A stretch of DNA of 24,000 bases from Fidelibacterota bacterium (lineage in GTDB: Bacteria; Fidelibacterota; Marinisomatia; Marinisomatales; TCS55). The stretch is taken from assembly GCA_036228285.1 (NCBI GenBank), contig JAZAOA010000068.1, forward strand, positions 6,921 through 30,920, given 5' to 3'. Shown one piece after another: positions 8,426 through 23,217 of the stretch. The stretch's first letter is position 1. The number at the start of each line of letters is the position of its first letter. A program made the position numbers and the translations under genes. Below the pieces are notes generated by a model. That model did not search any database. It was not told the origin of the DNA and was given only the letters and a program-made list of their open reading frames with translations.

Positions 8426-9829
8426 CTATATTGCAAATTGTTGAATAATAGATGCAATTGAAGCTGTTAGTTTCTTTGCATATGGAATATGGATGAATTC
8501 ATTTGGGCCATGAGCATTAGACTGCGGACCAAGAATTCCAGTAATTACAAATTGTGCCTTCGGAAATTTTTCACCTAACATAGCCATAAACGGTATCGTT
8601 CCCCCTTCTCCCATAAATAAAGCAGGTTTTTTAAAGTAAGCTTGAGAAGCTTGTTGAATGGCAGTATCTAACCAAGGATCTAACTCTGGTGCATTCCATC
8701 CTGTAGCGGGCTCATCAAATTCTACAGTAATAGTTGCATCATATGGAGGGTTTTCTGTTAAAGCCTTATTCATAGCTTGCACAGCAATTTCTTTATCAAG
8801 AGTTGGAGGAATACGCATAGACAACTTTACTTCTGTATATGGACGTAGAACATTTCCACCGTCCTTTACCGCAGGAACTCCATCCATTCCAACTACTGAA
8901 AGAGCTGGTCTCCATGTTTGCCTGAGTGTTCCTTCAACTGGATCGCTTGTAGTAGACTTCATCGACTCATGCCATGGAAATTGGTCAAATTCTCCAGCTA
9001 ACTCATCTACCATCTTGTTTATATCTTCTATTCTTCTTTCCGGTATATCAACAACAAGATCATCAAGAATAATTTCTCCTGTTTTTTCATCTTCTAATCG
9101 AGAAAGTAGTTGTCGTAATACACGGAATGAAGATGGCACAACCCCGCTGGCAGAACCCGAATGCACTCCTTCATTTAAAACATCCACGCGTACTGTACAT
9201 CCAATGAGACCTCTTAAGGATGTAGTTGTCCAAAATTGCTCATAGTTTTGCGCGCCTGAATCAAGACAAACGACTAAATTAGGCTCGCCAATTAAAGAAG
9301 AACAATGATCCATATAAAAAGGCAAATCTGGTGATCCACTTTCTTCAGAAAATTCTATTAAAATTATGATCCTTGGATGATCTATATTCTGATCTTGTAA
9401 TGAGCGTACAACTGCCGTTGCAGCAAACATTGCATATCCATCATCTGCACCACCACGACCATAAAGTTTATCACCTTCAATAACAGGTTTCCATGGACCC
9501 AAGCCATCGTTCCAACCTTGCATTTCAGGTTGTTTATCCAAGTGCCCATACATTAAAATATTTCCCTTTATGTTTCCAGGGCAATCTATAATGATTAATG
9601 GTGTTCTTTTATCTTCTTGAAAAGTATGAACTGTACTACCATCTGGCTTATGTTTCTCTGCCCAATCTTTTGCTAATTTTAGTGCAGATGCCATATGTCC
9701 ATTATTAATCCATTCCGGATCAAAATCTGGTGATTTATTTGGAATCCGGATATAGTCTAACAATGTTGGGATAATATGTTTATCCCAAAATTTATCTACG
9801 TAGCTATCATTTTTTGAATGATTTATCAT
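8426..9829 (-). CDS. M20-family metallo-dipeptidase (CNDP/Dug1-like)
   Basis: 467 aa with M20 metal and catalytic motifs: YGHLDKQPE, GRGGADDGYAMF, the EE pair in EFSEESGS and a C-terminal HGPNEF. Confidence 0.85.
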   Translation of the reverse strand: MINHSKNDSYVDKFWDKHIIPTLLDYIRIPNKSPDFDPEWINNGHMASALKLAKDWAEKHKPDGSTVHTFQEDKRTPLIIIDCPGNIKGNILMYGHLDKQPEMQGWNDGLGPWKPVIEGDKLYGRGGADDGYAMFAATAVVRSLQDQNIDHPRIIILIEFSEESGSPDLPFYMDHCSSLIGEPNLVVCLDSGAQNYEQFWTTTSLRGLIGCTVRVDVLNEGVHSGSASGVVPSSFRVLRQLLSRLEDEKTGEIILDDLVVDIPERRIEDINKMVDELAGEFDQFPWHESMKSTTSDPVEGTLRQTWRPALSVVGMDGVPAVKDGGNVLRPYTEVKLSMRIPPTLDKEIAVQAMNKALTENPPYDATITVEFDEPATGWNAPELDPWLDTAIQQASQAYFKKPALFMGEGGTIPFMAMLGEKFPKAQFVITGILGPQSNAHGPNEFIHIPYAKKLTASIASIIQQFAI

Positions 9830-10028
9830 ATTTGATAAAAATTAGACTTGGAATTTCGTTTTTATTAATAAAGTATCAAGCAATTTTTTACATAAAATTA
9901 GAAAACAATTTTTTAAAGTATATATAAATTCAAAAATATTTAATTATGGAAAAACATTCACTAATTAAAGAAGCTCAAGACAATATTTTATTAAATTAAC
10001 TTTCTGCTGAGTCTAGTACACCATAGAT

Positions 10029-10054
10029 TTAGATATACTATCTAAGATTTTTTT
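10029..10054 (+). promoter_or_regulatory. 17-bp palindrome TTAGATA-tac-TATCTAA followed by T7, immediately upstream of the GH18 operon (operator or weak attenuator candidate)
   Basis: Bases 10029-10035 pair perfectly with 10039-10045 (7 bp, 3-nt loop). GA plus a run of seven T (10048-10054) follows, ending 6 nt before the TTG start at 10060. The stem is AU-rich with one GC pair, so it is weak as an RNA hairpin. Confidence 0.25.
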
Positions 10055-10059
10055 CAGAA

Positions 10060-11532
10060 TTGCAATACTTAAGAAAAATAAAACCATTATACTTTATAAT
10101 GATGAATTTACTTTGTTCTGTATTTGCGCAAGAGCATCCAGGAATTCATAAACTTCAGCTAGAGTATTATAATAATAACTACAATGAATTATCTAGTCCA
10201 TATACAAACGAACACATTATAGATAAACAAAATCGTTCAAGTGGACCTAATCGAGAAGTTTTTGGTTACCACCCATATTGGATGGGGACCGCATGGCAAA
10301 ATTATAATTACAATCTAATATCTACTATTGCCTATTTTAGTGCAGAAGCAACTGCTCAAGGGAATCTAAGTAATCTTCATGGTTGGCCAGTGGCTGGTTT
10401 AATTAATTTGGCGCATGCAAATGGTGTTAATGTCGTGCTTTGTGTAACACTTTTTGATAGTGAAGATTTGATTACATTATTAAGCAATCCATCTAATAGA
10501 GAAAATCTAATTAATAATCTTTTAATACAGGTACAAGCTGGGAATGCTGATGGCGTAAATGTTGATTTTGAATCGTTCCCATCATCACAAAAACAAAATA
10601 TGGTCCAATTTATTACAGATCTTACTAACACATTTCACACGGAGATACCTGGTTCGCAAGTTACATTGGCAACACCAGCAGTTGACTGGAATGATGGATG
10701 GGATTACAATGCCCTCGCAACTATAAGTGATGGGTTATTTATTATGGGATATAATTACTATTATGGTGGAAGTTCAACCACTGGTCCAATTGCTCCGCTT
10801 TCTGGTAATGGAATTACTGTTTCTTGGACGTTAAATGACTATTTGAATAAAACAAATCATCAATATAATAAATTGATTCTTGGATGTCCATATTATGGCT
10901 TCGAATGGTCAGCTGCATCTGAATCTAGTGGATCACCTACTTTAGATTATGGTTCTGCAAAATTTTATTCTGAAATGGAAGGAAACGCATTGTCATATGG
11001 TAAACTTTGGGATGAATCTTCACAAACCCCATGGTATCGCTATCAAAATCCAAACTGGTATCAAGGATGGTATGATGATAGTTTATCACTGTCCCTTAAG
11101 TATGATTTTGCCATTGAAAATAACTTATTAGGAGTAGGCATGTGGGCTATGGGTTATGATGGAAATAATCCTGAACTTTGGGATCTATTATCTTCAAAAT
11201 TTATTACGAATGGTTTGCATGTATCTTCTCAAGATAGATTCACTTTACCAATTTCCTCTATGATTCATTCGCTTTATCCTAATCCATCAAACTCATCAAT
11301 TACATTAGATTTTTCATTAAGAAATAAAAATGATAATGCAATAATATCTATTTTTGATTTATTAGGACGTCCTGTAAAAAACGTAAACATCCTATCGAAT
11401 GGAAATGAAAATTATAAATGGATATGGGATGGGACAGATATGTTTAATCAAGAATTACCTGCAGGTATTTATTTTCTAACAATATCTGTTGATCAAAATA
11501 TAGAAAGTAGAAAAATCACATTATTAAAATAA
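10060..11532 (+). CDS. Secreted GH18 glycoside hydrolase (cortical-fragment-lytic / SleL-YaaH-like subgroup) with a T9SS type-A C-terminal sorting domain
   Basis: GH18 catalytic motif DGVNVDFE, plus the subgroup-typical FGYHPYW near the N-terminus and GVGMWAMGYD near the barrel end. The C-terminal ~85 aa (YPNPSNSSITLDF...IFDLLGRPV...AGIYFLTI...KITLLK) match the Por/T9SS CTD pattern. It has a signal-like N-terminus with a TTG start at 10060; an alternative ATG at 10099 gives a poorer signal peptide. Confidence 0.85.
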   Translation: MQYLRKIKPLYFIMMNLLCSVFAQEHPGIHKLQLEYYNNNYNELSSPYTNEHIIDKQNRSSGPNREVFGYHPYWMGTAWQNYNYNLISTIAYFSAEATAQGNLSNLHGWPVAGLINLAHANGVNVVLCVTLFDSEDLITLLSNPSNRENLINNLLIQVQAGNADGVNVDFESFPSSQKQNMVQFITDLTNTFHTEIPGSQVTLATPAVDWNDGWDYNALATISDGLFIMGYNYYYGGSSTTGPIAPLSGNGITVSWTLNDYLNKTNHQYNKLILGCPYYGFEWSAASESSGSPTLDYGSAKFYSEMEGNALSYGKLWDESSQTPWYRYQNPNWYQGWYDDSLSLSLKYDFAIENNLLGVGMWAMGYDGNNPELWDLLSSKFITNGLHVSSQDRFTLPISSMIHSLYPNPSNSSITLDFSLRNKNDNAIISIFDLLGRPVKNVNILSNGNENYKWIWDGTDMFNQELPAGIYFLTISVDQNIESRKITLLK

Positions 11533-12806
11533 TGAATTATTATTGTATCATATTTTTTGTACTTATAACAAATCTATTATTTTCTCAAACAGACAAATCT
11601 ATTCATCAAGTACAATCAAAATATTATAGTTCTATTCCCACTCCTCCAGTAGATAAAGTTAATATAAAAACTGGCTTAGATATTCTCTTAGATAAGAAAC
11701 AACACTTAATTATTGATAAAAAAATTGCACTTGTTACAAATCAAACTGGTGTTGATCAAAATGGAATTGCGAATTATAAAAAATTAATGGAATTGAAAAA
11801 AACAAATCTGAAAGTTGTTTTCTCACCTGAGCATGGGCTATTTGGAGAAACAGATTCAAAAGTTACATATGATGATGGAATTGAGAATTTACCAAAAGTA
11901 TATAGCTTATATGGCACAACACGAAAACCAACTAAAGAAATGCTAGATGGCATTGATATAATTATTTATGATATTCAAGATATTGGGGCACGATTTTATA
12001 CATATATATCAACTTTAGGTTTAGTTATGGAAGCGGCTGCAGCATTAAATATACCAGTGATAGTTTTAGATAGACCGAATCCAATACGGGGTGATATTAT
12101 TGAAGGACCATTACTAGATCTTGAATATCAATCATTTATTGGTAAATACCCTATACCTATTCGATACGGAGGAACCGTTGCTGAACTTGCTGAAAGAATT
12201 ATTAAGCAAAAATGGATTAATCCTATACCAAAGCTGACTGTAATTCCAATGGAAGGATGGCATTCATCATTATGGTATGATGAAACTACCCTACCATGGA
12301 TTAAACCTTCTCCAAATATTCCAGATTTGGAAACAGCATTAATTTATCCAGGAATGTGTTTATTAGAAGGAACAAATATAAGCGAAGGAAGAGGTACAAA
12401 TAACCCATTTAAATGGTTTGGGGCGCCATGGATAGATAATAAAGGATTATCCCAAGAACTAAATAAATTAAAATTACCAGGTGTTGTTTTTGTACCAAAA
12501 TCATTCACCCCAATATCAATTCCTGGAGTTTCAGATAGACCAAAATATGAAGATCAGCTATGCTATGGAATTGAAATTAGAATAATAGATAGAAATCAAT
12601 TTTACAGTATTAAAACAGGTGTAAGTGTATTAAAAAAAATAAATGAGCTATACCCGGATTCCCTAATTATTAAAGAAAAACGATTGAATAGACTATGGGG
12701 GAGTGACACGCTTCTAAAAACTTTACGAGATAATAAAGTGTCAAATAAATTTTTTTCAACAGAATTAATAACAATATTTTTATTAATGATTTTATTTATT
12801 AATTAG
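11532..12806 (+). CDS. namZ: DUF1343-family exo-beta-N-acetylmuramidase (NamZ-like), exported
   Basis: DUF1343 motifs are present: ALVTNQTGVD, FSPEHGLFG, YDIQDIGARFYTYISTL, LDRPNP and ISEGRGT. A signal-like N-terminus (MNYYCIIFFVLITNLLFSQ) is present. The ATG overlaps the GH18 stop by 1 nt (TAATG). Confidence 0.85.
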   Translation: MNYYCIIFFVLITNLLFSQTDKSIHQVQSKYYSSIPTPPVDKVNIKTGLDILLDKKQHLIIDKKIALVTNQTGVDQNGIANYKKLMELKKTNLKVVFSPEHGLFGETDSKVTYDDGIENLPKVYSLYGTTRKPTKEMLDGIDIIIYDIQDIGARFYTYISTLGLVMEAAAALNIPVIVLDRPNPIRGDIIEGPLLDLEYQSFIGKYPIPIRYGGTVAELAERIIKQKWINPIPKLTVIPMEGWHSSLWYDETTLPWIKPSPNIPDLETALIYPGMCLLEGTNISEGRGTNNPFKWFGAPWIDNKGLSQELNKLKLPGVVFVPKSFTPISIPGVSDRPKYEDQLCYGIEIRIIDRNQFYSIKTGVSVLKKINELYPDSLIIKEKRLNRLWGSDTLLKTLRDNKVSNKFFSTELITIFLLMILFIN

Positions 12807-12812
12807 ACGATT

Positions 12813-14336
12813 GTGATAATTGTTAAATCAAATAGAGTTTCATTTATAGCAAGAATCTTTAAAAAAAATATATTCATTCTATTAATTTTTTTTCTACAAT
12901 GTAGTAATCCTCCTACGCTATATAATGTATCAGGATATAAAAAGGCAATTGATCCAATTAGTTCGATTATACAATCTTCTGGGTTGCAAACAAATATTGG
13001 CATTAAGGTCATAGATTTAAAATCCAATGAAACTATATATGAATGGAATCCTAATTCATTATTTAACCCAGGAAGTAATGTTAAAATATATACATGCCTA
13101 GCAGCCTTAGCGCTTCTTGATAGCAATAAGGCTTTCTCAACATCAGTATATCAAGATTCAAACGCAATTTATTTAGTTGGTGGTGGTGATCCTCATCTTA
13201 CGATTGAACAGTTAGATACAATTTCTCAGACAATAAGTGATACAATAAAACTCCATATTGGAAGAGATTATTGGTTTTTAAATAACCGTTTAAGAATGCG
13301 ATCAGTGGATTTAGCAAAAAGAATTAACTATCTTGTTGTAGATAATTCTATTTTTGATAATCTCCATTATGGACCTGGATGGATGTGGGATGAAGGCTCC
13401 TGGTGGCATGCTCCTCAAATTAGTGCAATGTCCTTAAATGAAAATTGTATTGATTTTTATGTCTCACCTGGTAAACTTAAAAAACCTGCCATAATTAATA
13501 CTCACCCAAAAACAAATTATATAACTATTCAAAATGAATCAATTACAGTAAATGATACTACAAATTTTCAAAAATTTAGGATTGAACGTAGTTGGGAAAA
13601 TCAAAAAAATAATTTTACCATTTCTGGAAATATAATGGATACTTCTTCTGTGGATACTCTACAAAGAAATATTCATGACCCTAGTTTATTCGCGGGAACT
13701 GTATTTAAAGAAATGCTGGTAAGCAAAGGACTCAATATTAAGAAGATCATCAAAGGGTCTGTTCCTAAAAATGCAATGAAAATAATAGAGCATAAATCCA
13801 AACCTATTGTTCATTCACTTAATGGCTTAATGAAAAGAAGTGAAAATCTTACTGCTGAATTACTAGTAAAACATATTGGATCAACTTTTTTTGATACTGT
13901 AGGAACTTGGAATAATGGACTGCTTGCTATTAAAACGTTCTTACATGATACAGTAGGTGTTGATACAAATACATTTAGTTTAAGTGATGGATCAGGAATG
14001 TCAAGATACAATTATAGCAGCCCAAATCATTTTACATCTACTCTTTTATGGGCATATAATAATAAAAATATTCGTAAGCAATTTTTTCAAACATTTCCCA
14101 TTGGTGGATTTGACGGAACGCTGGAAGACAGATTGCAAAATATTGATACAACATCTACTGTTATCGCAAAAACTGGTTCTCTTGCTGGCGCTAGTTGTTT
14201 ATCGGGTTATATAATTTCTAATACTAACAATCCTATTGCCTTTTCGATTTTGATGAATGGATTTGTTAATTCATCTAAACCTTTTCGCGAACTTCAAGAT
14301 GAAATCGTTTATGCACTAACAAAAATAAAATTATGA
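12813..14336 (+). CDS. dacB: D-alanyl-D-alanine carboxypeptidase/endopeptidase, PBP4 (peptidase S13) family, exported
   Basis: Three active-site motifs in the correct order: SxxK (PGSNVK), SDGSGMSRYN (SxN region) and KTGSL. The size (~500 aa) is typical of PBP4. It has a hydrophobic signal-like N-terminus and a GTG start 6 nt after the namZ stop. Confidence 0.85.
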   Translation: MIIVKSNRVSFIARIFKKNIFILLIFFLQCSNPPTLYNVSGYKKAIDPISSIIQSSGLQTNIGIKVIDLKSNETIYEWNPNSLFNPGSNVKIYTCLAALALLDSNKAFSTSVYQDSNAIYLVGGGDPHLTIEQLDTISQTISDTIKLHIGRDYWFLNNRLRMRSVDLAKRINYLVVDNSIFDNLHYGPGWMWDEGSWWHAPQISAMSLNENCIDFYVSPGKLKKPAIINTHPKTNYITIQNESITVNDTTNFQKFRIERSWENQKNNFTISGNIMDTSSVDTLQRNIHDPSLFAGTVFKEMLVSKGLNIKKIIKGSVPKNAMKIIEHKSKPIVHSLNGLMKRSENLTAELLVKHIGSTFFDTVGTWNNGLLAIKTFLHDTVGVDTNTFSLSDGSGMSRYNYSSPNHFTSTLLWAYNNKNIRKQFFQTFPIGGFDGTLEDRLQNIDTTSTVIAKTGSLAGASCLSGYIISNTNNPIAFSILMNGFVNSSKPFRELQDEIVYALTKIKL

Positions 14337-15259
14337 TAAAACCAAAAAAATTAAAGACTGAGGCTACTATAGGTATAGTCAGCCCATCTTATTGGATTGA
14401 TGAAAAAATTTTAAAGAATACATCGGATATTTTTTTACAAAAAAATTACAGACTTGTTTATGGAAAGAATATCTATTCAAAAGATGGTCCATTCGCAGGG
14501 AGTCCTGAACAACGAGCGAATGATATTCATACAATGTTTTTGGATCCATCAATTGATGCAATTTTATGTGCTCGTGGAGGTTATGGTGCAAATAAAGTGA
14601 TTCCCTTACTTAATTATGAGTTGATAAAAAAACATCCAAAAATATTTATGGGGTACAGTGATATTACCGCTTATTTACTTTCGATAACCCAACAAACCGA
14701 ATTAGTAACATTTCATGGTCCTATGTTAACATCATATGAAAATGGAGATAGAGAATATAATTATAACCAAATGATAAATATTCTATCAGGTAATGGAGAT
14801 GAGCAAATTATTGTACCTAATCAAATGCAACCTAATATTCTAAAAGCTGGCAATGCAGTTGGTCCTTTATGGGGAGGAAATTTAACACTTATTATTAATC
14901 GTCTTGGAACGAGTGATGTATTTGATACGAAAGGTACGATCTTATTTTTAGAAGATTTGAATGAATATTTTTACTCTTTTGAACGTATGCTAATCCATTT
15001 AAAGAATGCTGGTGTTTTTGATAATATTTCAGGGCTTATTATTGGAGAATTAATCAATATAAAAGATGAAAAAGTTCCTTTCTCAAAATCTACTGATGAG
15101 ATTGTAATGGATATTTGTGGAAAAATGGATTTTCCTATTATCACAAATTTTCCATGCGGCCATGGTAAATACCAAGCAACTTTTCCTATATCAATTCCAG
15201 TAGAATTACAAATAGGAAAAACTGTGTCTATAAAACTACTTGAACCAGCTGTTCAATGA
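14333..15259 (+). CDS. ldcA: Muramoyltetrapeptide LD-carboxypeptidase LdcA (peptidase S66), cytoplasmic
   Basis: S66 motifs are present: ARGGYGA, the nucleophile region GYSDITA, WGGNL and the catalytic His in FPCGHG. No signal peptide. ATGA start/stop overlap with dacB. Confidence 0.9.
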   Translation: MIKPKKLKTEATIGIVSPSYWIDEKILKNTSDIFLQKNYRLVYGKNIYSKDGPFAGSPEQRANDIHTMFLDPSIDAILCARGGYGANKVIPLLNYELIKKHPKIFMGYSDITAYLLSITQQTELVTFHGPMLTSYENGDREYNYNQMINILSGNGDEQIIVPNQMQPNILKAGNAVGPLWGGNLTLIINRLGTSDVFDTKGTILFLEDLNEYFYSFERMLIHLKNAGVFDNISGLIIGELINIKDEKVPFSKSTDEIVMDICGKMDFPIITNFPCGHGKYQATFPISIPVELQIGKTVSIKLLEPAVQ

Positions 15260-15331: not shown

Positions 15332-16699
15332 ATGTCTCATTATAAAAAAGATCTTGGTTTAAAAGAATCTATTGCCATAGTAATTAGTAGGATAATTGGT
15401 TCAGGAATATTTCGTGTACCTGCATCAATTATGGCTCTTGTAGGATGTACATCGTTATTTGGAGTTGTTTGGATAATTGGTGGCTTAATTACAATCTTTG
15501 GTGCTGTTATTTACTCAGAACTATCAGCGATGATGCCAAAATCTGGGGGGCCATATGTTTTTTTAAAAGCAGCTTATGGACCATATATTGCTTTTATAAG
15601 AGGATGGGCAATGTTCTTTGTTTCAGAGACAGCATCCATCGTAGCAGTTGCATTGGTTTTTTCGGAATATATTAGTGCGATATGGGTAATTATTTATGGT
15701 CATCATTTTAATTTAATTACTATTTTTTTTCTATCATTGATTACTATATGGATTCTAACATTTATCAACTTGTTTGGTGTGAGACTTAGTGGAAAATTTC
15801 AGATTTTTTTTAGTATTCTAAAAATAACTGCTCTTGGAGGTATTATTGGAGCAACTCTTACAGGATATAATACTGGTAATATAGAAAATTTTAGCAATCC
15901 TTTATGGCCAGAAACATTTGGATGGCATACAGTACTTTCTGTTGGCGCAGCTTTGAGATATGCATTTTTTGCATTTAGCGGATGGGAAGGAGCAACCTAT
16001 ATTGCGGAAGAAGTAAAAGAGCCCCAACGAAACCTTCCTCTTTCTTTATTTATAGGTATTGCTGGAGTAATGCTGCTTTACTTAGGCGCTAATATTGGAT
16101 ATTTATATCAATTAGATGTTGAAGCAATTAAAGAAAATAAATGGGTTGCAACAGCAGCAATGAAAGTTGTTTTGGGAACATCCGGAGGTGTACTTATATC
16201 TATTGCTGTAGCAATAAACGCATTTGGTAATATCAGTACTCAAATACTAACCAAAAGTCGTACTTGGCATGCAATGGCCCGCGATGGTTTATTTTTTAAA
16301 CAATTCAAGGGTCTTCATTCAAAATATAATACTCCAAATAATGCTCTGATTGGTCAAGGAATTTGGGCAACTGTTTTGTTACTTTTTTCTGTTTTAGCTA
16401 CTTATAAACAATCAGGTATTTCAGGAACAAACACTTATGAAATGATTATTGATTTTTTTTCTGCTACAAGTACAATATTTAACATACTGACTTTTTCCTC
16501 TATATATATACTGAGAAAAAAATGGAAAGATAAAAACAGGCCATACAAAGCACTTTTTTATCCATGGAGTATGATTATCGTTCTTTTATTATATAGTTCT
16601 TTTTTAATAATTACTTTATATACTGCTTTTATCCCATCAATAATTGGTTTTGCATTAACTTTGAGTGGAACTTTTTTCTATAGGAAAATAAGTAAATAA
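15332..16699 (+). CDS. APC-superfamily amino acid permease (LAT/SteT-like)
   Basis: 455 aa with about 12 predicted TM helices. The N-terminal APC motif is IGSGIF, followed by SELSAMMPKSGGPYVFLKAAYG. It lies 72 nt downstream of ldcA on the same strand. Confidence 0.8.
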   Translation: MSHYKKDLGLKESIAIVISRIIGSGIFRVPASIMALVGCTSLFGVVWIIGGLITIFGAVIYSELSAMMPKSGGPYVFLKAAYGPYIAFIRGWAMFFVSETASIVAVALVFSEYISAIWVIIYGHHFNLITIFFLSLITIWILTFINLFGVRLSGKFQIFFSILKITALGGIIGATLTGYNTGNIENFSNPLWPETFGWHTVLSVGAALRYAFFAFSGWEGATYIAEEVKEPQRNLPLSLFIGIAGVMLLYLGANIGYLYQLDVEAIKENKWVATAAMKVVLGTSGGVLISIAVAINAFGNISTQILTKSRTWHAMARDGLFFKQFKGLHSKYNTPNNALIGQGIWATVLLLFSVLATYKQSGISGTNTYEMIIDFFSATSTIFNILTFSSIYILRKKWKDKNRPYKALFYPWSMIIVLLLYSSFLIITLYTAFIPSIIGFALTLSGTFFYRKISK

Positions 16700-16718: not shown

Positions 16719-17897
16719 TTAATAATAATTGGAAATCCAGGATAATGCCAATGCAGTTAATAATCCAAAATATATTCCTATTATATTTCCTAAAACACCC
16801 ATAAGTAACCCTACTGGTGCAAGAGACTTTTGATATACTGATGCGACTATTGGAGCGGTTACAACTCCTCCTATATTGGCTTGACTACTTGTAGCTATTA
16901 AAAACATTGGTACTTTTAATAATCTTCCTCCCATAAATAAGATTGCTGCATGTATAGTAATCCAACATATACCTACTAGTAAAAATACAGGAGCATATAA
17001 AATTGAAGTAAAATTTGCTTTTGCACCAATAGTAGCTAATAATAAATACAAGAAAAAATTGCCAATATGTGAAGCACCGGCATTTTCCAATTCAGAAAAT
17101 GGCGTAAGAGATAAAACGATTCCCAATATACTTACTATGATAATTGTCCAACCAAAGCTGGTAATAATTCTTCCAAGATCTGGTAACCATTCACCAATTT
17201 TCAGAGATATATAGCCACCTATAAAACCAATGGATATAATAGCAATCAAATCAATAAATCGTGTTGGTCTTTTTTTGGATTCAATGTCGCTCATTTGGAT
17301 ACTAATATTTTCAATTAGAGAAGATTCAACGCCATTCCAGCGATCAATTCGTTCCTGATAGGCTGAAAAGAAAATTACTATACCCATCCAACCATATCCA
17401 ACTAGTGTATCCACAATAATCATTATTCCAAATAAATCATCTGGCGTTCCAATTGATGTACCTACAGCAACCATATTTGCACTTCCACCAATCCAACTTC
17501 CTGATAAAGCTCCCAATCCTTTCCATGAATCATTAGGAAGCCAATTGGCAAATATGGAAAACGATACTATTCCTCCAATTACAATACCTAATGTGGCAAT
17601 TAACATTATTAATAGAGCTTTCGAGCTAAGTTTTTTTAATGCATCAAAATTTGACGATAGTAAAAGCAATATTAATGAACATGGAAGTAAATAAGTTCTT
17701 ATCCAATCATAAAGAACTGATGATTCTGGAAGTATTCCCAGTGTTGTTGAAAACATTGGAAGGAAATATATCCAAATAGCAGTTGGTAAATACTTAAAAA
17801 ATCCTGAAAACTTAGGTTTAGAATTGAGATAGTATATGAGACTTATTATAGCTATTAAATAGACTAAAATAGACATTGGATCTTGCAAGGGAATCAT
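16719..17897 (-). CDS. DUF819-family polytopic membrane protein (uncharacterised transporter candidate)
   Basis: 392 aa, entirely hydrophobic helices. The N-terminal pattern (FKYLPTAIWIYFLPMF...LLPCSLILLLLSSNFDALKKLSSKALLIMLIATLGIVIGG) resembles YjcL/DUF819 proteins as I recall them. ATGA overlap with the anmK stop. Confidence 0.65.
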   Translation of the reverse strand: MIPLQDPMSILVYLIAIISLIYYLNSKPKFSGFFKYLPTAIWIYFLPMFSTTLGILPESSVLYDWIRTYLLPCSLILLLLSSNFDALKKLSSKALLIMLIATLGIVIGGIVSFSIFANWLPNDSWKGLGALSGSWIGGSANMVAVGTSIGTPDDLFGIMIIVDTLVGYGWMGIVIFFSAYQERIDRWNGVESSLIENISIQMSDIESKKRPTRFIDLIAIISIGFIGGYISLKIGEWLPDLGRIITSFGWTIIIVSILGIVLSLTPFSELENAGASHIGNFFLYLLLATIGAKANFTSILYAPVFLLVGICWITIHAAILFMGGRLLKVPMFLIATSSQANIGGVVTAPIVASVYQKSLAPVGLLMGVLGNIIGIYFGLLTALALSWISNYY

Positions 17898-19009
17898 ACC
17901 GTCATCTTTCCTAATATTACAGGCTTATTTGCTCCAGTAACTGATGGTATATTCCCAGGGATACCTTTAACATGGGCTACAGCGAAAATAGCAAAACCTA
18001 GAGCTTCTTTGCCATCAACAGATATATCTAATTTATTTGATGATAACACTTGAATTGGGTTAAATAGATCTTTTAAGTTATTCATTATGCATTTATGATG
18101 AACACCGCCTCCGCTGACGATCATCTTACTTACATTTTGATCTTGTATAAATTTCTCACACGCTAAAAATATAGTTTTTGCAGTAAAAAAAGATAGTGTT
18201 GATAATTGATCTATAAAATCAAGACTATTAAGATCATTATTATATTTGTCTAACCAATTCTTGCCGAACTCATCTCTACCGGTTGATTTTGGCGGAATTA
18301 GATCAAAATATGAATGATCTAACCATTTAGATACTAATTCATTATCTATATTTCCTTTAAGAGCAAGTTGTCCCCTATTATCAAATCCATCTTTAAATTT
18401 ATTAAGATATGCTTCATCTAATAAAGACATTCCAGGGCCTGTGTCAAAACCAACAATTTCCTGATTAATTTCTGATGGCAACAATGTTACATTTGCTATT
18501 CCACCAATATTTAATGCAATTACTGAAGACTCATGATTCCGAAATAACCACTCATCTATTTTTGGCATTAATGGTGCTCCAGTACCACCAGCATCAATAT
18601 CCGCATTTCTAAAATCTGAAATTACAGGAACGCTTAATTTTTTTGCCATATGATGTGGAGCGCCTATCTGTAAAGATAATTTTCCACTTATATGATTAAT
18701 TGTCTGTCCATGAGATCCAATGAGTTCAATATTATTTATTTTCTTTGATTGTAAGTAATTAAACAATGTATCAGCGTACCATTGGCCAAGATAATCATTT
18801 AATTTGAAATGGTCTTTCCCTGGATTATATACTGCTTGTCTAATTTGTTCTTTTAGATCTATAGGATATGGAATACATACTTCGTTAATTATTTGATAAT
18901 GCACATTATCATTTAGTTGTATGTCTGCAATAACAATATCTAAACCATCCATAGATGTTCCTGTCATCAAACCTGCAGTACGTATTGTTTCTTTAAAAAA
19001 TAAATCCAC
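17894..19009 (-). CDS. anmK: Anhydro-N-acetylmuramic acid kinase AnmK
   Basis: N-terminal GLMTGTSMDGLDI (compare the E. coli GVMSGTSLDGVD type motif), GGIAN, and C-terminal VSGGGVHH. The 371-aa length is typical. GTG start 6 nt after the upstream stop. No signal peptide. Confidence 0.9.
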   Translation of the reverse strand: MDLFFKETIRTAGLMTGTSMDGLDIVIADIQLNDNVHYQIINEVCIPYPIDLKEQIRQAVYNPGKDHFKLNDYLGQWYADTLFNYLQSKKINNIELIGSHGQTINHISGKLSLQIGAPHHMAKKLSVPVISDFRNADIDAGGTGAPLMPKIDEWLFRNHESSVIALNIGGIANVTLLPSEINQEIVGFDTGPGMSLLDEAYLNKFKDGFDNRGQLALKGNIDNELVSKWLDHSYFDLIPPKSTGRDEFGKNWLDKYNNDLNSLDFIDQLSTLSFFTAKTIFLACEKFIQDQNVSKMIVSGGGVHHKCIMNNLKDLFNPIQVLSSNKLDISVDGKEALGFAIFAVAHVKGIPGNIPSVTGANKPVILGKMTV

Positions 19010-19015
19010 AATACT

Positions 19016-21931
19016 TTAATTAAATCGAAGTATAGATTTATTTAAAGTATTATGAAATTTTCTACGCACCTGTTTAATGCCAGGATTATTTCGAGTTGGA
19101 TATACTCGATTTGTAAGTAATACTACTACTAGCTCTTGCTCTGGATCTATCCAAAAAGAAGTACCTGTATAGCCTAAATGACCAAATGCTTTATCAGAAA
19201 AATAATCACCTGCACTACTTGTACCATCTCGATCTGGCCTATCCCAACCATATCCTCTGTTTGCTTCATTTACTGTACTCTGTCTTGAAGTAAATAATGA
19301 TATCAACTCTTTATCAATAATTTTTTTATCTCCTATCATTCCATCATTTAATAACATTTGACTATACTTACCAAGATCCTCTGCATTAGAAAATAATCCT
19401 GCATGAGCAGATATTCCGCCAAGCAAATTTGCATTTTCATCATGAACATATCCGTGAGCAGTTTTTCTAGGATATAGATCATAGGATAATGATTTCATCG
19501 GACCGATCAATTCTGATGCAATGCCAGCAATTTTTCTTCTGAGCGAATTCTTTGATGTTCCAATTGGCACAACTGTTCTTTCAGTTGGTGGGATGTCTTT
19601 CCATACATTTGGTGGCGGATTATAAAATGTATTATTCATTCCAAGAGGTGAATAAAACCAACTTTTACCAAGTGCATGGAGATTATTACCGCCTACTCTT
19701 TCTAAAATTGTTCCTAGTAATATCATTCCAAGATCACTGTATTTGTATTCACTACCTGGTTTATATGTGAGTCTTCGATTAATTATATTATCAAGTACCT
19801 CTCCCCTTCCTCTGTATTTACTTTCAAGAAAATATCGATGATAAGCACTAAGTCCAGACTCATGAATTAATAAATGGCGAATGGTAATTGTATCTTTTCC
19901 TGATTGATGAAAACCTGGAAAATAATCATTAATAGGTTGATCAAGATAAATCTCTTTATCATTAACTAACTTCATGATTATTGGAGTAGCAGATACTACT
20001 TTTGTTATTGATGCAAGATCAAAAATAGTTTTTGTGGTAACCTCTTTCGATTTATGATATGTATGATATCCAAAACCTTTAGATATGATTGTATTTCCAT
20101 TTTTCGAAATATAAACTTGTGCACCTGGGAATACTTTAGCTTCTATTGCGCTATCTATAACTGATAGAGAGTAAGAAATATCTAACTTATCAATTATGGA
20201 TTCTTCACGATACACAAGAACTTGGCTGCCTCTAATAAATTGATTATTTAAGTCAACAGGCAAGCGTCCTGTTATATTATTATTAGTTAGTAAAGCATTG
20301 GCAGCAGCCTTTACCAGAACACTACCATATCCAAATGCAGCAATATATGTATCAATATATTCGTAATCTGGTAAATACGGACTACCAAAGCTAGTTACAA
20401 TAAATTGAATTCCTTTTTTATGTAATTTTTTCAATAATTCTGCGTAACTGGGATCAATAGTTGCGATTCCTTTATTCATACGAATTCGTACAACTATTGA
20501 TATGAATGCTAAATCAACATTTTTTAATTTATCTACTATTTCATTAATTTTTTTATCATTTACTTTTTCAGTTATAATAATTTCCATTAAATCTGGATAA
20601 GAACTATTCAACTGATTTTTCATAGGCAACAAATACCTTTGAGAATTTTTATCTTCAGTAATTGATAAGTGCGCAATATTCTTATAATCAGAAATTTTAT
20701 TAAGAAGATCATTTTTATCTTTTACAACAGTAATAGATAACTGAGCCATCTTACTTGCTATATTTAAATGTTTAGGATTACCAATTATCAAATTACTTTT
20801 TTGCCAATCTCTTTTTCCTTTATCTGAGAATAGATTCATTTCTTCCTTTGCCAACCAAATTCTCTCTACTGATTCATCAATCCTTTCTTCCGATATTCTT
20901 CCAGATAGCACTGCTTCTTTTATTGCATGAATGGTTGAATCCACATCAAGAGGTAATAAAATTATATCTGCACCTGCCTCTACTGCTCTCACACACGCCT
21001 CGGAAGACTTGATGTTATTTAAAGCGCCCATCTCCATAGCGTCTGTTACGACTAAACCATCAAACTTTAATTTTTTCCTCAATAACCTATTTGTAATTAC
21101 GGAAGATAAAGTAGCTGGTTTTTTAGAGCGATCAATGCCCGGTGTTATTACATGTGCTGTCATTACCATTTTAACACCATTTTTTATAGAAGATTTAAAT
21201 GGAGGTAACTCAATTTTTGAAAAATCTCTTCTATTTCCTGGAATTACTGGCAATCTAGTATGACTATCTGTTGATGTATTACCATGTCCTGGAAAATGTT
21301 TAACACAAGCGTAAACATTTTGCTCTTGAATTCCCCGAATAAATGAATTTCCAAAAATACTGACAAGACGTGGGTCATCACCATACGATCTAAAATTAAT
21401 AATTGGATTATCTGGATTATTATTTACATCCATTACTGGTGCAAATATCATATTTACTCCAAAGGCTTTTGCTTCCTTGGCAGTAATTACACCCTGTTCA
21501 TATGCCAACACATTTCTTCCTGTTGCTGCTACAGCCATGTTTGTTGGAAATAGTGTCGCTCCATCATACCATTGTCCGAGACCTCTTTCATAGTCAGCAG
21601 CAATAAATAATGGGGTCTCCGACCAACTTTGCGCTATTTGTATTCGATTAAATGTTTCTTCTAATCCACCACCATAAACAACTGCCCCTCCTATTCCCAA
21701 TTCATTAATCCATCTATGAAATTTTTTATATTCAAATGTTGTTTCATTAGTAATGTCGCCTTTTAAGCGAAACATAATCATCTGAGCTATTTTTTTATCA
21801 AGTGAAAGTTTTTGCCAAGGATCCTCAACAATTTCTATCTCTTCTTTGCTTATAAAAGTTTGACACCCAGATATCAACAAGCACAGAAATATGATGATAA
21901 GTTTGGATAAAGTAATTTGATTGTCTTTCAT
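19016..21931 (-). CDS. nagZ: Lipoprotein fusion: GH3 beta-N-acetylglucosaminidase (NagZ, two-domain YbbD type) plus a C-terminal beta-lactamase-fold serine hydrolase (AmiE/YbbE-like MurNAc-L-Ala amidase candidate)
   Basis: 971 aa with a lipobox LISGC at residues ~19-23. GH3/NagZ motifs are KHFPGHGNTSTDSH (Asp-His dyad) and the nucleophile region GLVVTDAMEMG. A middle domain of ~200 aa follows. The C-terminal ~380 aa carry SxxK (ASITK), a Tyr motif (YSDLG) and HLGYTGTS in place of KTG. Confidence 0.9.
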   Translation of the reverse strand: MKDNQITLSKLIIIFLCLLISGCQTFISKEEIEIVEDPWQKLSLDKKIAQMIMFRLKGDITNETTFEYKKFHRWINELGIGGAVVYGGGLEETFNRIQIAQSWSETPLFIAADYERGLGQWYDGATLFPTNMAVAATGRNVLAYEQGVITAKEAKAFGVNMIFAPVMDVNNNPDNPIINFRSYGDDPRLVSIFGNSFIRGIQEQNVYACVKHFPGHGNTSTDSHTRLPVIPGNRRDFSKIELPPFKSSIKNGVKMVMTAHVITPGIDRSKKPATLSSVITNRLLRKKLKFDGLVVTDAMEMGALNNIKSSEACVRAVEAGADIILLPLDVDSTIHAIKEAVLSGRISEERIDESVERIWLAKEEMNLFSDKGKRDWQKSNLIIGNPKHLNIASKMAQLSITVVKDKNDLLNKISDYKNIAHLSITEDKNSQRYLLPMKNQLNSSYPDLMEIIITEKVNDKKINEIVDKLKNVDLAFISIVVRIRMNKGIATIDPSYAELLKKLHKKGIQFIVTSFGSPYLPDYEYIDTYIAAFGYGSVLVKAAANALLTNNNITGRLPVDLNNQFIRGSQVLVYREESIIDKLDISYSLSVIDSAIEAKVFPGAQVYISKNGNTIISKGFGYHTYHKSKEVTTKTIFDLASITKVVSATPIIMKLVNDKEIYLDQPINDYFPGFHQSGKDTITIRHLLIHESGLSAYHRYFLESKYRGRGEVLDNIINRRLTYKPGSEYKYSDLGMILLGTILERVGGNNLHALGKSWFYSPLGMNNTFYNPPPNVWKDIPPTERTVVPIGTSKNSLRRKIAGIASELIGPMKSLSYDLYPRKTAHGYVHDENANLLGGISAHAGLFSNAEDLGKYSQMLLNDGMIGDKKIIDKELISLFTSRQSTVNEANRGYGWDRPDRDGTSSAGDYFSDKAFGHLGYTGTSFWIDPEQELVVVLLTNRVYPTRNNPGIKQVRRKFHNTLNKSILRFN

Positions 21932-22026
21932 TTCATTGCAAAGTTAAATGCTCTCAATCAATCATTCTACATTCAATTCTATTCTTGTTTAAGTTAATCA
22001 CTAAAAATAGATTACAAACATCATTA

Positions 22027-23217
22027 ATGAACTCTAAAGAAAAAGAATATATTGTTGTTGGAGTTGATGGAGGTGGATCTAAAGTATCTGCTGGCATTAT
22101 AGAATCTAATGACAATATAACTTTTACTATCAAATCATTTTCACATCAATACTATAATGAATCAAAAGAATACATTTCAGACTATTCTCCAAAAGATATG
22201 GCTACTCAATTATATGAACATAGTAAAGAGGAATATAATATAAATAATGAAGAAAAACTTCAAGGTAAGGAAATTATAAAATCATTTCATGACACCATCA
22301 TTAATCTAAACGTTGACAAACCCATTTTATTGGGAGTTGGAATGGTAGGTTTAAAAACAAAGGATTTGAGAGGTATTGGAGCAATTGCAAACGGGCCAAG
22401 AATGCCAAAATTTTGTATGGAACTAGAAAACGAATTAAAACAATCCAATGTAAAATTATACAAACCAATTCAATATATTGGAAGTGATGCAGATAACTGT
22501 GGAATTGGAGAAGAATTCGGGAAAGATGGTTTATTTAAAGATGTTCAAAATAGTTACTATATAGGTGGCGGTACAGGTACGGCAGATGCATTAAAACTTC
22601 AAAATAAATTAATACCTTTTGATAATATATCTTCCTGGATTGTTAAGACATGGGAAATATTAAATGATAAAAATATTTGCATGGAAAAATATACTTCCCT
22701 AAAAGGCATACAATCTTTGTATAGTCACTATTCCAACATACCAATTCATACACTTCAGGATAACGCAATTTATGCAAGTGAAATTTTTTTAAGAGCATTA
22801 GAAAATGAACAAGCTGCTTTATTAACTTATCAAGATTTAACAAAATATATGTCTAAATTAATTATAGAACGTATAGAAACAGTGTTTTCTGGTTGGCAAA
22901 ACAATTTTAAACTGTTAAATCCTAACCATAGTATTTTGGATAATAATCACTCATACAGAAATATTTTATTGCAACGTATAATTATAGGTCAAGGTCTAGG
23001 TGAATTATTTCATTTTTCAAAAAATACACCTTTACTTTGGGAGCCATTGCATAATAATATATATAACATGATTGTAAAATCTAAAGCATTACCATTAGAA
23101 GCAAAAAATTCACTCTTAGAAAATAAAACTCTTAAAAAAGATTTTATTATGACATCCAACTTAGATAATTCAGCTCTTTTAGGAGCAGGGATCTCAGCAG
23201 CGCTGAATACATTATGA
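22027..23217 (+). CDS. BadF/BadG/BcrA/BcrD-type ATPase, N-acetylhexosamine (GlcNAc/MurNAc) kinase-like, atypically long
   Basis: Phosphate-1 motif VGVDGGGSK, then GVGMVGL, GSDADNCGIGE and the adenosine motif YYIGGGTGTA. The start is moved to ATG 22027 (MNSKEKEYIVVGVDGGG), because the track start at 21985 is TTG. At ~397 aa it is roughly 100 aa longer than the NagK/MurK-type kinases I recall. Confidence 0.75.
   Translation: MNSKEKEYIVVGVDGGGSKVSAGIIESNDNITFTIKSFSHQYYNESKEYISDYSPKDMATQLYEHSKEEYNINNEEKLQGKEIIKSFHDTIINLNVDKPILLGVGMVGLKTKDLRGIGAIANGPRMPKFCMELENELKQSNVKLYKPIQYIGSDADNCGIGEEFGKDGLFKDVQNSYYIGGGTGTADALKLQNKLIPFDNISSWIVKTWEILNDKNICMEKYTSLKGIQSLYSHYSNIPIHTLQDNAIYASEIFLRALENEQAALLTYQDLTKYMSKLIIERIETVFSGWQNNFKLLNPNHSILDNNHSYRNILLQRIIIGQGLGELFHFSKNTPLLWEPLHNNIYNMIVKSKALPLEAKNSLLENKTLKKDFIMTSNLDNSALLGAGISAALNTL

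Follow-up and report, generated by a model that had tools for sequence, protein, structure and literature searches.

The analysis of a 24,000-nucleotide stretch of a Fidelibacterota genome (assembly GCA_036228285.1, contig JAZAOA010000068.1, positions 6,921 to 30,920 of the forward strand; hereinafter the window, in whose own numbering coordinates are given) points to a secreted glycoside hydrolase family 18 (GH18) protein, encoded directly upstream of namZ, as a peptidoglycan endo-β-N-acetylglucosaminidase that would feed a periplasmic system comprised of NamZ, NagZ and an amidase. We place the probability of this reading at roughly 0.6. It is favored because the adjacency to namZ is conserved, the window is rich in peptidoglycan-salvage genes and related loci elsewhere are also linked to peptidoglycan; further support comes from the profile scores against YdhD and the structure 4WIW, precedents from characterized enzymes, an N-terminal tag shared by the two proteins and the ratios of non-synonymous to synonymous substitution (dN/dS). 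Domain identities, operon structure, conservation, genomic context and purifying selection are read from sequence, and from them we infer the substrate and cleavage specificity of the GH18 enzyme, the localisations of the proteins, the assignment of the amidase and the order of the steps.

The GH18 protein (Table 1) matches the Glyco_hydro_18 domain (PF00704) over amino acids 133-367 with E=8e-32 and 111.6 bits (cutoff 29.6), while its C-terminus (amino acids 405-486) matches Por_Secre_tail (PF18962; E=1.4e-9, 38.5 bits, cutoff 27) and the type-A sorting domain TIGR04183 (E=1.4e-10, 41 bits, cutoff 23). This C-terminal domain (CTD), taken with the Sec signal, marks it as a predicted type-A cargo of the type IX secretion system (T9SS); CTD-bearing proteins are also frequent neighbors at related GH18 loci. 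The catalytic motif DGVNVDFE is encoded at 10549-10572 and is followed downstream in the barrel by MGYN, the equivalent of the MxYD motif. In the former the third Asp and the Glu are retained and the second Asp of the DxxDxDxE signature is replaced by Asn; in the latter the Tyr is retained and the Asp is replaced by Asn, and alignments show that the Trp of GMWAMGYD is also kept. Judging by these residues the enzyme is probably active. Hence Pfam, NCBIfam and the sequence itself bear out the GH18 domain, catalytic motif and T9SS CTD that the original prediction had recognized. An AlphaFold2 (AF2) model of the protein has a predicted local distance difference test score (pLDDT) of 89.1, in the 477-amino-acid numbering of the public gene call (P0001). 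That call starts at the ATG at 10099, which truncates the signal peptide, while the TTG at 10060 lies 39 nucleotides upstream. Since starting at the TTG results in a normal signal peptide, and since the N-terminal extension is also kept in the 81%-identical relative at locus L001, we regard the TTG as the likelier start. The signal peptide was judged by inspection of the sequence, with a predicted cleavage before Gln that recalls the Bacteroidetes-type "Q-rule" described in a preprint (10.1101/2021.12.02.470905).

Compared with L001, the GH18 barrel has a dN/dS of 0.10, the CTD one of 0.20 and NamZ one of 0.15, the values of the barrel and NamZ indicating that both genes are held by purifying selection. 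The same comparison revealed an in-frame loss in the window of about 330 codons at ~11203-11262, encompassing an FN3-like domain and a further domain of ~330 amino acids, which accounts for the window protein having 490 amino acids against ~820 in L001 and puts the barrel almost directly against the CTD. The ~330-amino-acid domain (L001:9075-10118, amino acids ~382-712 of the 818-amino-acid protein) is also found in P0025, P0052 and P0064, and displays the sequence pattern VNGFDR...NTFDFI..HG...DWILGEEGT...SGSEIGYDL...DVDWPDGIKP...VGFETIYP. It returned only a sub-threshold match to DUF4960 in Pfam (E=0.005) and no sequence match in the PDB; from its sequence it is a probable flavodoxin/GATase1-like (ThuA-like) non-catalytic module.

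The open reading frame (ORF) downstream of the GH18 gene is by sequence unambiguously a bona fide NamZ of family GH171 (DUF1343): NamZ_N is matched with E=2.9e-75 (252.6 bits) and NamZ_C with E=1.3e-41 (143.3 bits), both far over the gathering scores, and among solved structures it matches 4K05 (BfNamZ1) with 7e-71 and 4JJA (BfNamZ2) with 2e-49. The TAATG overlap noted in the original prediction is confirmed: the last A of the GH18 stop codon (11530-11532) is the first base of the namZ ATG (11532-11534), such that the two genes share the single base at 11532. The AF2 model of NamZ, built from a shallow alignment, was poor (pLDDT 52), with the N-terminal tag and the C-terminal tail not reliably modelled. 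This tail contains a hydrophobic segment, ELITIFLLMILFIN, encoded at 12759-12803, which is kept in all relatives of 76-100% identity and stands in place of the usual ...KYYLYD end of more distant orthologues; a membrane anchor at the C-terminus or a sorting signal is a possible role. An exact-sequence look-up of the window NamZ returned no match; a contig near-identical to the window was found through P0001 (JGI 3300020355 Ga0211598_1000030), and the ENA and Tara data contain a very large number of NamZ relatives with 76-100% identity.

To gauge the generality of this gene pair we turned to a homologue scan with one genome per species, which recovered 80 loci bearing a GH18 homologue (L001 and similar handles denote these loci), ranging from 81% down to 35% identity, the close relatives being annotated as Candidatus Neomarinimicrobiota, Marinimicrobia or Fidelibacterota. 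NamZ is the next downstream gene in 17 other Marinimicrobia-type genomes, among ~20 informative loci in the clade (L001-L003, L005, L006, L008, L010-L013, L015-L017, L019, L021, L023 and L024, with the adjacency in L002, L003 and L012 based on tblastn only). Across these NamZ-linked loci the GH18 identity to the window falls from 81% to 43%, with 43-50% at the lower end. The spacing at the junction, measured in 14 cases, is -4, -1 or 0 nucleotides in 11 loci and +9 to +52 nucleotides in the three deepest. In L022 NamZ lies two genes upstream of GH18, in L004 it lies ~6 kb downstream beyond inserted glycosyltransferases, and in L007, L009 and L014 the end of the contig interrupts the locus; NamZ is missing from L018 and L020. 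In a neighbor-joining tree of 71 catalytic domains every NamZ-linked GH18 copy falls within one clade, and NamZ is absent within 8 kb in all 56 loci with more distant homologues, which belong to Bacteroidota, Ignavibacteriota, WOR-3, Phycisphaerae and further groups. Given its presence in 17 other genomes as against none of these 56 distant loci, the adjacency cannot be attributed to chance, and its distribution indicates an old, vertically kept trait of one phylum-level lineage rather than of the whole GH18 family. The co-occurrence count thus dispels the concern, raised with the original prediction, that the adjacency might be unique to a single genome, and the proposed wiring of GH18 to NamZ stands for this Marinimicrobia-type clade but not for the family at large.

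A conserved neighbor spanning the entire family was also sought and rejected, as Pfam counts over 51 downstream and 48 upstream neighbors outside the NamZ clade were heterogeneous, and an apparent cluster of neighbors from 10 loci proved to be united only by shared T9SS CTDs. The reverse approach, starting from NamZ homologues, returned only relatives of 76-100% identity.

Table 1. Features of the GH18-namZ locus and its surroundings in the window
Feature	Coordinates	Strand	Evidence and remarks
ROK sugar kinase	7087-8010	-	Pfam/NCBIfam; divergent from the GH18 operon
DUF302	8029-8457	-	Pfam/NCBIfam; divergent from the GH18 operon
M20 dipeptidase	8426-9829	-	Pfam/NCBIfam; divergent from the GH18 operon
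GH18 gene	10060..11532	+	490 amino acids, TTG start; signal peptide, N-terminal His-helix tag, GH18 barrel, T9SS type-A CTD
Predicted Sec signal peptide of GH18, MQYLRKIKPLYFIMMNLLCSVFA	10060..10128	+	Predicted cleavage before Gln (MQYLRKIKPLYFIMMNLLCSVFA then QE; ends in VFA, then Q)
GH18 N-terminal tag, IHKLQLEYYNNN	10144..10179	+	Family consensus SIHQxELE, His nearly invariant (alignment)
GH18 (β/α)8 catalytic domain with α+β insertion	10255..11202	+	PF00704; matches to 4WIW, 3CZ8; Foldseek
T9SS type-A C-terminal sorting domain	11272..11517	+	PF18962, TIGR04183; β-sandwich in model, residues 388-475
TAATG stop/start overlap of GH18 and namZ	11530..11534	+	Sequence ...AAA TAA TG AAT...
namZ (GH171, DUF1343)	11532..12806	+	424 amino acids, ATG start; Sec signal peptide MNYYCIIFFVLITNLLFS, then Q
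NamZ N-terminal tag, SIHQVQSKYY	11598..11627	+	Matches the GH18 tag
PBP4/DacB-type S13 DD-carboxypeptidase/endopeptidase	12813..14336	+	PF02113 2e-79; TIGR00666 3.7e-66; lipobox-like FFLQC
LdcA-type LD-carboxypeptidase (S66)	14333..15259	+	PF02016, PF17676; no signal peptide
Amino-acid permease	15332..16699	+	PF13520 1.7e-55; last gene in the co-directional run
DUF819 membrane protein	16719..17897	-	PF05684 1.6e-91; overlaps the AnmK gene
AnmK anhydro-MurNAc kinase	17894..19009	-	PF03702 8.7e-93
NagZ-type GH3 + β-lactamase-fold fusion lipoprotein	19016..21931	-	PF00933 4.7e-84; PF00144 1.7e-60; 971 amino acids

The genes around the pair furnish the next line of evidence. GH18 and namZ head a co-directional run in which namZ and the PBP4 gene are separated by 6 nucleotides, the PBP4 and LdcA genes overlap by 4 nucleotides and the permease gene follows after a gap of 72 nucleotides. 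On the opposite strand, the fusion lipoprotein displays a lipobox (LLISGC, then Q) and has as its best PDB matches GH3 N-acetylglucosaminidases, including B. subtilis YbbD/NagZ. As amiE and nagZ are adjacent in B. subtilis, its β-lactamase-fold half is by analogy a candidate AmiE-like amidase that would act between N-acetylmuramic acid (MurNAc) and L-Ala. Import of anhydro-muropeptides or MurNAc is a possible function of the DUF819 protein. Because PBP4, LdcA, AnmK, the NagZ-β-lactamase-fold fusion, the ROK kinase and the M20 peptidase are co-located, the window is, on the strength of these predicted activities, a peptidoglycan-salvage island around GH18-namZ, a setting to which the original prediction did not refer. 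Among the window ORFs scanned there is no MurQ, MurR, MurP or phosphotransferase system (PTS) gene, and AnmK and ROK kinases are found there instead. A scan of this AT-rich DNA for promoters and terminators found fewer promoter-like sites than in shuffled sequences and no terminator inside the operon.

Loci of relatives provide further links of this kind. In L021 and L024 the gene order is ROK-like, SpoIID, a second NamZ paralogue, GH18, NamZ and SSF transporter; SpoIID-type enzymes are lytic transglycosylases that act on peptide-free glycan. These extended clusters span L021:5067-13619, with the SSF transporter at its end, and L024:5138-11655, and the two NamZ paralogues flanking GH18 recall the division of labor between NamZ1 and NamZ2. 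L022 combines a NamZ, a GHL10 protein with a CTD and then GH18. In the Melioribacteraceae loci L048, L053 and L063 (~7900-14700) a different conserved cluster combines GH18 with a transglutaminase-core protein, a VanY and an AmiE-like β-lactamase-fold protein, the last being 33-34% identical to the window fusion by tblastn, with the match lying on the gene assigned to Beta-lactamase by Pfam. T9SS proteins with weak matches to M23 peptidases, under the Pfam cutoff, adjoin GH18 in L020 and L039. Finally, a gene of the ornithine (Orn)/diaminopimelate (DAP)-decarboxylase family (418 amino acids) overlaps the GH18 start in L001 and L005, and L003-L013 have an ORF of ~418 amino acids at this position before GH18; a DAP decarboxylase would turn peptidoglycan-derived diaminopimelate into lysine.

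The kinship of the GH18 domain itself was assessed using the ranking of profile scores against the PDB as a proxy for subgroup placement. Searches with the single sequence and with the profile both rank 4WIW first and B. subtilis YdhD (3CZ8) second; the family profile gives them 146 and 142 bits, followed by the nematode chitinase 8HW6 (103), YaaH (94), chitotriosidase (91) and SleL (91); 4WIW is a Desulfitobacterium "putative chitinase" with no function assigned. Alignments show that the window GH18, YdhD and 4WIW share a shortened YD-H-x-GS-x-GP loop devoid of the GSW Trp and that all three have a residue other than Asp in place of the second Asp of DxxDxDxE; in both respects they differ from 8HW6 with its DGCDIDWE motif and GSW loop. 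No chitin-binding module (CBM) was matched in the window GH18 or the family members checked. Thus, by its sequence, the window protein lacks the complete DxxDxDxE and the GSW Trp of a bona fide chitinase, as well as the CBM that such enzymes often carry. Accessory domains in the family instead comprise FN3, CUB, PKD, dockerin and the above ~330-amino-acid domain; LysM was matched neither in the window GH18 nor in 10 homologues, and the hosts of the family are metagenome-assembled genomes (MAGs) of diderms of the Fibrobacteres-Chlorobi-Bacteroidetes (FCB) type. JGI labels relatives of the protein "spore germination protein YaaH". Fold comparison was discarded as a means of subgroup assignment: the best Foldseek match to a GH18 structure has E=1.8e-25, and 4WIW, chitinases, SleL and YdhD all come out between 1e-25 and 1e-21. 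SleL is a peptidoglycan N-acetylglucosaminidase acting on small spore-cortex fragments, according to work cited in PMC10653849, and it is the only spore GH18 enzyme whose activity is proven, that of YdhD being listed as not determined (PMC10653849). Subgroup membership is therefore no proof of activity on peptidoglycan, since SleL and YaaH score like chitotriosidase, Foldseek does not discriminate and YdhD lacks a determined activity. By profile score, the membership of the SleL/YaaH subgroup put forward at the outset is favored by YdhD and 4WIW, with 142 and 146 bits against 103 for the chitinase, but not by SleL and YaaH themselves at 91-94 bits; on balance the placement by profile favors a peptidoglycan glucosaminidase without proving it.

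These observations allow us to propose that the pair forms the front end of a peptidoglycan-scavenging pathway of this marine Marinimicrobia-type bacterium, in which the GH18 protein would be exported by Sec and then carried across the outer membrane through its CTD and the T9SS. Outside the cell it would cut the glycan backbone of foreign wall debris as an endo-β-N-acetylglucosaminidase, with N-acetylglucosamine (GlcNAc) in the -1 subsite, as would be expected from the substrate-assisted catalysis of GH18 enzymes. The resulting fragments, with MurNAc at the non-reducing end, would be taken into the periplasm, where an amidase, for which the β-lactamase-fold half of the NagZ fusion lipoprotein is the candidate, would strip the stem peptide. 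NamZ would then take off the exposed MurNAc, or a disaccharide, NagZ would take off GlcNAc and PBP4 would cut the cross-links, with LdcA, AnmK, the ROK kinase and the M20 dipeptidase completing the breakdown in the cytoplasm. Translational coupling would keep the endo-enzyme and the exo-enzyme in step.

The chemistry of the hand-off has precedents. The denuded product of a GH73 enzyme, (MurNAc-GlcNAc)3, starts with MurNAc, such that NagZ is inert on it and NamZ must act first (PMC13627109), and MurNAc-GlcNAc, the standard NamZ substrate, has been made with an amidase and an endo-glucosaminidase (PMC8054146). This work bears out the premise of the original prediction that MurNAc forms the non-reducing end once a glucosaminidase has cut. 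The further claim that the upstream enzyme makes exactly the substrate of the downstream one did not survive: in the preprint 10.1101/2021.12.02.470905 all NamZ enzymes assayed need MurNAc with a free lactyl carboxylate, and because NamZ requires peptide-free MurNAc an amidase step must come between GH18 and NamZ. The same preprint describes the NamZ family as including, besides the exo-muramidases BsNamZ and TfNamZ2, the exo-disaccharidase TfNamZ1, which releases a GlcNAc-MurNAc disaccharide, and sequence as not predictive of the type of activity; hence the description of the window NamZ as an exo-MurNAc enzyme is narrower than the family allows, firm as its family identity is. The window NamZ scores higher with BfNamZ1 than with BfNamZ2, and the L021 orthologue about equally with both. 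The two steps also differ in compartment. NamZ has a Sec signal only, with a lipobox in its stead in L013 and L015-L017, and since the CTD sends GH18 outside, uptake across the outer membrane would have to intervene between both steps, the two enzymes thus being predicted to act in different compartments. Moreover, GH18 need not be the sole source of NamZ substrate because NagZ and AmiE can also expose MurNAc ends; its role would more likely be extracellular fragmentation of the polymer.

Several points weigh against assigning the GH18 protein as a peptidoglycan glucosaminidase of a salvage pathway. No outer-membrane importer is visible in the window, and the route through NagZ and AmiE already yields NamZ substrates, making an endo-glucosaminidase not strictly necessary. 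The activity could be altered because Asn replaces two conserved Asp residues, in DGVNVDFE and MGYN. No peptidoglycan-binding module (LysM, SH3, SPOR or PG_binding) is present in any GH18 family member examined. The nearest solved relatives by profile, YdhD and 4WIW, are themselves devoid of a determined activity, with SleL and YaaH being no closer than chitotriosidase. Lastly, outside the one clade the GH18 gene is usually solitary among housekeeping genes.

Foremost among the alternatives is that the protein is an ordinary secreted chitinase or chitodextrinase, which came to lie beside NamZ through a general GlcNAc/MurNAc catabolic island. Foldseek indeed recovers many true chitinases with E of ~1e-22 to 1e-24 and TM-scores as good as those of SleL and YdhD, 8HW6 and chitotriosidase attain 91-103 bits, equal to or over SleL/YaaH, and the catalytic D-x-E is conserved together with the Tyr and the -1 Trp. 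The sea is rich in chitin, and NagZ and a ROK kinase would serve its catabolism as well. However, no chitin-binding module, GH20, lytic polysaccharide monooxygenase or chitobiose-transport genes were seen in the window, and missing from the family are the second Asp of DxxDxDxE and the loop with the Trp, with no chitin-binding module in the members checked. The recurrent neighbors in four lineages are specific to or associated with peptidoglycan (NamZ, SpoIID, VanY, PBP4, LdcA and, by weak matches, M23-like proteins), and the tight coupling and shared tag with NamZ are hard to account for outside a common pathway. We therefore regard a chitinase as unlikely, albeit with a real chance of being correct.

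A distinctly improbable alternative is cleavage of some other GlcNAc-containing glycan, be it that of glycoproteins, as by endo-β-N-acetylglucosaminidases of the ENGase type, or a bacterial or algal surface polysaccharide, with NamZ being linked only via downstream sugar catabolism. GH18 enzymes do attack many glycans (PMC11218509), the accessory CUB, PKD, FN3 and dockerin domains are generic, and there is a weak GH85 match (6.9e-6) along with one to the EndoS TIM barrel in a single homologue (7.4e-5); but these two matches lie under or near the Pfam cutoffs, there is no ENGase among the 60 PDB profile matches listed, and the context has no SusC/D of the sort seen in polysaccharide utilization loci, its informative neighbors being peptidoglycan enzymes. 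Even less probable is that the protein serves housekeeping rather than nutrition, either on the surface of its own cell or in secretion, for instance by trimming shed peptidoglycan or a surface glycan, with the NamZ link as a secondary recruitment. Consistent with such a role are the solitary position of the gene in most phyla and the family-wide occurrence of the tag, which suggests a common partner independent of NamZ. Yet, with its T9SS CTD or dockerin the enzyme ends up beyond the outer membrane, remote from the sacculus of its own cell, and in the clade of the window GH18 is embedded in a salvage operon. Hence a secreted glucosaminidase that acts on foreign peptidoglycan remains our preferred reading.

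The tag shared by the two proteins lies just after their signal peptides, as PGIHKLQLEYY in GH18 and KSIHQVQSKYY in NamZ, with [SG]-I-H-Q-x-[EQ]-x-[EQ]-Y-Y as the common pattern. Tagged GH18-NamZ pairs are found in the window and in L005, L006, L008, L010, L011, L013, L015, L016, L019, L021, L023 and L024. In the AF2 model the GH18 tag forms a confident helix (residues 16-27 in the 477-amino-acid numbering, pLDDT 84-92). When 757 ORFs, taken from the window and the loci, were searched for the tag under strict criteria, 54 matched, namely 38 GH18 proteins across phyla, nine downstream NamZs, the window GH18 and NamZ, two unrelated +1 neighbors and three chance-looking cases, and a looser search found a tag-like motif in 56 of 71 GH18 family members. 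The tags of the two partners co-vary: those from the same genome are identical at 3.5 of 12 non-anchor positions on average, whereas tags from different genomes reach 2.4 (permutation p=0.009, n=10, with phylogeny ignored). In L021 and L024 both partners carry a G/K-P-H variant of the tag, and L023 has the related K-S-H and G-P-H forms. No tag was found in the second NamZ paralogue of L021 and L024 or in the L017 NamZ, and Bacteroides NamZ appears to be tagless because the alignment with 4K05 begins only at NamZ residue 41. Recent gene conversion is an unlikely origin of the tag, for the 5' regions, compared by eye, match only where the amino acids match.

The two tagged +1 neighbors are unrelated to NamZ and have no Pfam match (L040:5129-5437, 103 amino acids, and L057:9418-10452, 345 amino acids), their tags reading SIHQxEWE and SIHQEEYE.

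As for what the tag might do, a signal for a common receptor, a handle for heterodimerisation and piggy-back export are all options. A bolder conjecture, which we think unlikely to hold and offer as speculation, is that the SIHQxExE helix is a hitherto unrecognised assembly or sorting tag that would dock partners onto GH18 or a common receptor, such that the endo-glucosaminidase and exo-muramidase would form one complex, a surface "peptidoglycan utilisome", with the CTD-less NamZ possibly piggy-backing on its partner.

Comparisons with known systems help separate what is new here from what is not. Peptidoglycan turnover in B. subtilis, with the GH73 enzymes LytD/LytG and the murQ-murR-murP-amiE-nagZ-namZ genes, follows the same stepwise logic as that proposed for the window, from glucosaminidase to amidase, NamZ and NagZ, and NamZ, NagZ and the AmiE-like β-lactamase-fold domain are common to both. 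In contrast, the candidate in the window is a GH18 rather than a GH73, an operon-mate of NamZ, predicted to be T9SS-exported and from a diderm host, its NagZ and AmiE-like domains are fused, and MurQ, MurP and MurR are absent from the window. The Bacillus proteins SleL, YaaH and YdhD belong to the same GH18 family, and the variant DxxDxDxE and short loop are common to YdhD, 4WIW and the window GH18; unlike these spore enzymes the latter is a predicted T9SS-secreted protein of a diderm, without LysM and without a sporulation context. A further parallel is the salvage system of Tannerella forsythia and Bacteroides (TfNamZ1/2, AmpG, MurT/MurK/MurQ), which the available preprint text presents as acting in FCB diderms on foreign peptidoglycan with periplasmic, Q-rule NamZ; that text names no extracellular glycan-cleaving enzyme and no GH18 partner, and leaves the stem-peptide amidase unidentified. 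Among the Bacteroides enzymes the window NamZ is most like BfNamZ1 (4K05), which appears to lack the tag.

Another T9SS-secreted GH18 protein, ChiA of Flavobacterium johnsoniae, is a true chitinase in a chitin utilisation locus. It combines GH18 with a T9SS CTD in an FCB bacterium just as in the window, whereas the window family is without the chitinase signatures and is linked to peptidoglycan.

PMC11652737 describes Fidelibacter multiformis IA91, the one representative of the phylum in culture, as dependent on exogenous muropeptides, from which it draws carbon, energy and the material of its wall, and infers this trait to be ancestral. IA91 possesses peptidoglycan-recycling genes and was fed soluble muropeptides, and this text mentions neither GH18 nor NamZ (PMC11652737). 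L040, from a MAG of the same GTDB genus (TCS52) as IA91 according to that paper, has a 40%-identical GH18 and no NamZ within its contig. In the literature searched no paper paired NamZ with GH18, with GH171 and GH18 occurring together only in CAZyme inventories; this agrees with the initial supposition that the pairing is undescribed, although a prior mention in the primary IA91 paper (Nature Microbiology) is possible. The pathway chemistry and NamZ are already known; the novelty lies in a GH18 in this role outside sporulation, its T9SS export, the coupling to NamZ in an operon and the tag common to both.

Peptidoglycan makes up a large part of bacterial necromass, and the dark ocean abounds in Marinimicrobia (SAR406, Fidelibacterota). 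What has been missing so far is an enzyme acting outside the cell on the polymeric wall, for which the GH18 locus provides a conserved and very frequently sampled candidate. If the assignment is correct, GH18 glucosaminidase activity on peptidoglycan would no longer be confined to spore germination, a function could be given to a widespread "YaaH-like" family in FCB bacteria and there would be a marker operon for the recycling of cell walls in the ocean, with the shared N-terminal tag as an extra lead on the organisation of such enzyme pairs.

Some further features of the window merit mention. Just upstream of GH18, at 9946-10023, there is a remnant of an Orn/DAP-decarboxylase (lysA-like) gene, MEKHSLIKEAQDNILLN*, including an 18-codon ORF at 9946-9999; relative to L001 the ~1.13 kb body of this gene is cleanly deleted, with the junction at 10023/10024. 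This deletion and the equally clean one inside the GH18 gene amount to genome streamlining. A protein of 410 amino acids encoded at 21985-23217 on the forward strand shows a weak ROK match and recurs by the L021 and L024 clusters at 37-38% identity. Its counterparts, at L021:3905-5083 and L024 ~3982-5151, adjoin the SpoIID-NamZ-GH18-NamZ genes, and by this weak similarity it is possibly a MurNAc or GlcNAc kinase. Further away, on the reverse strand at 1661-5390, are genes for an ABC ATPase, an ABC-2 permease, a GldG-like auxiliary protein (ABC_transp_aux) and a DUF4340 protein, a set resembling the GldA/F/G gliding-associated transporter of Bacteroidetes.

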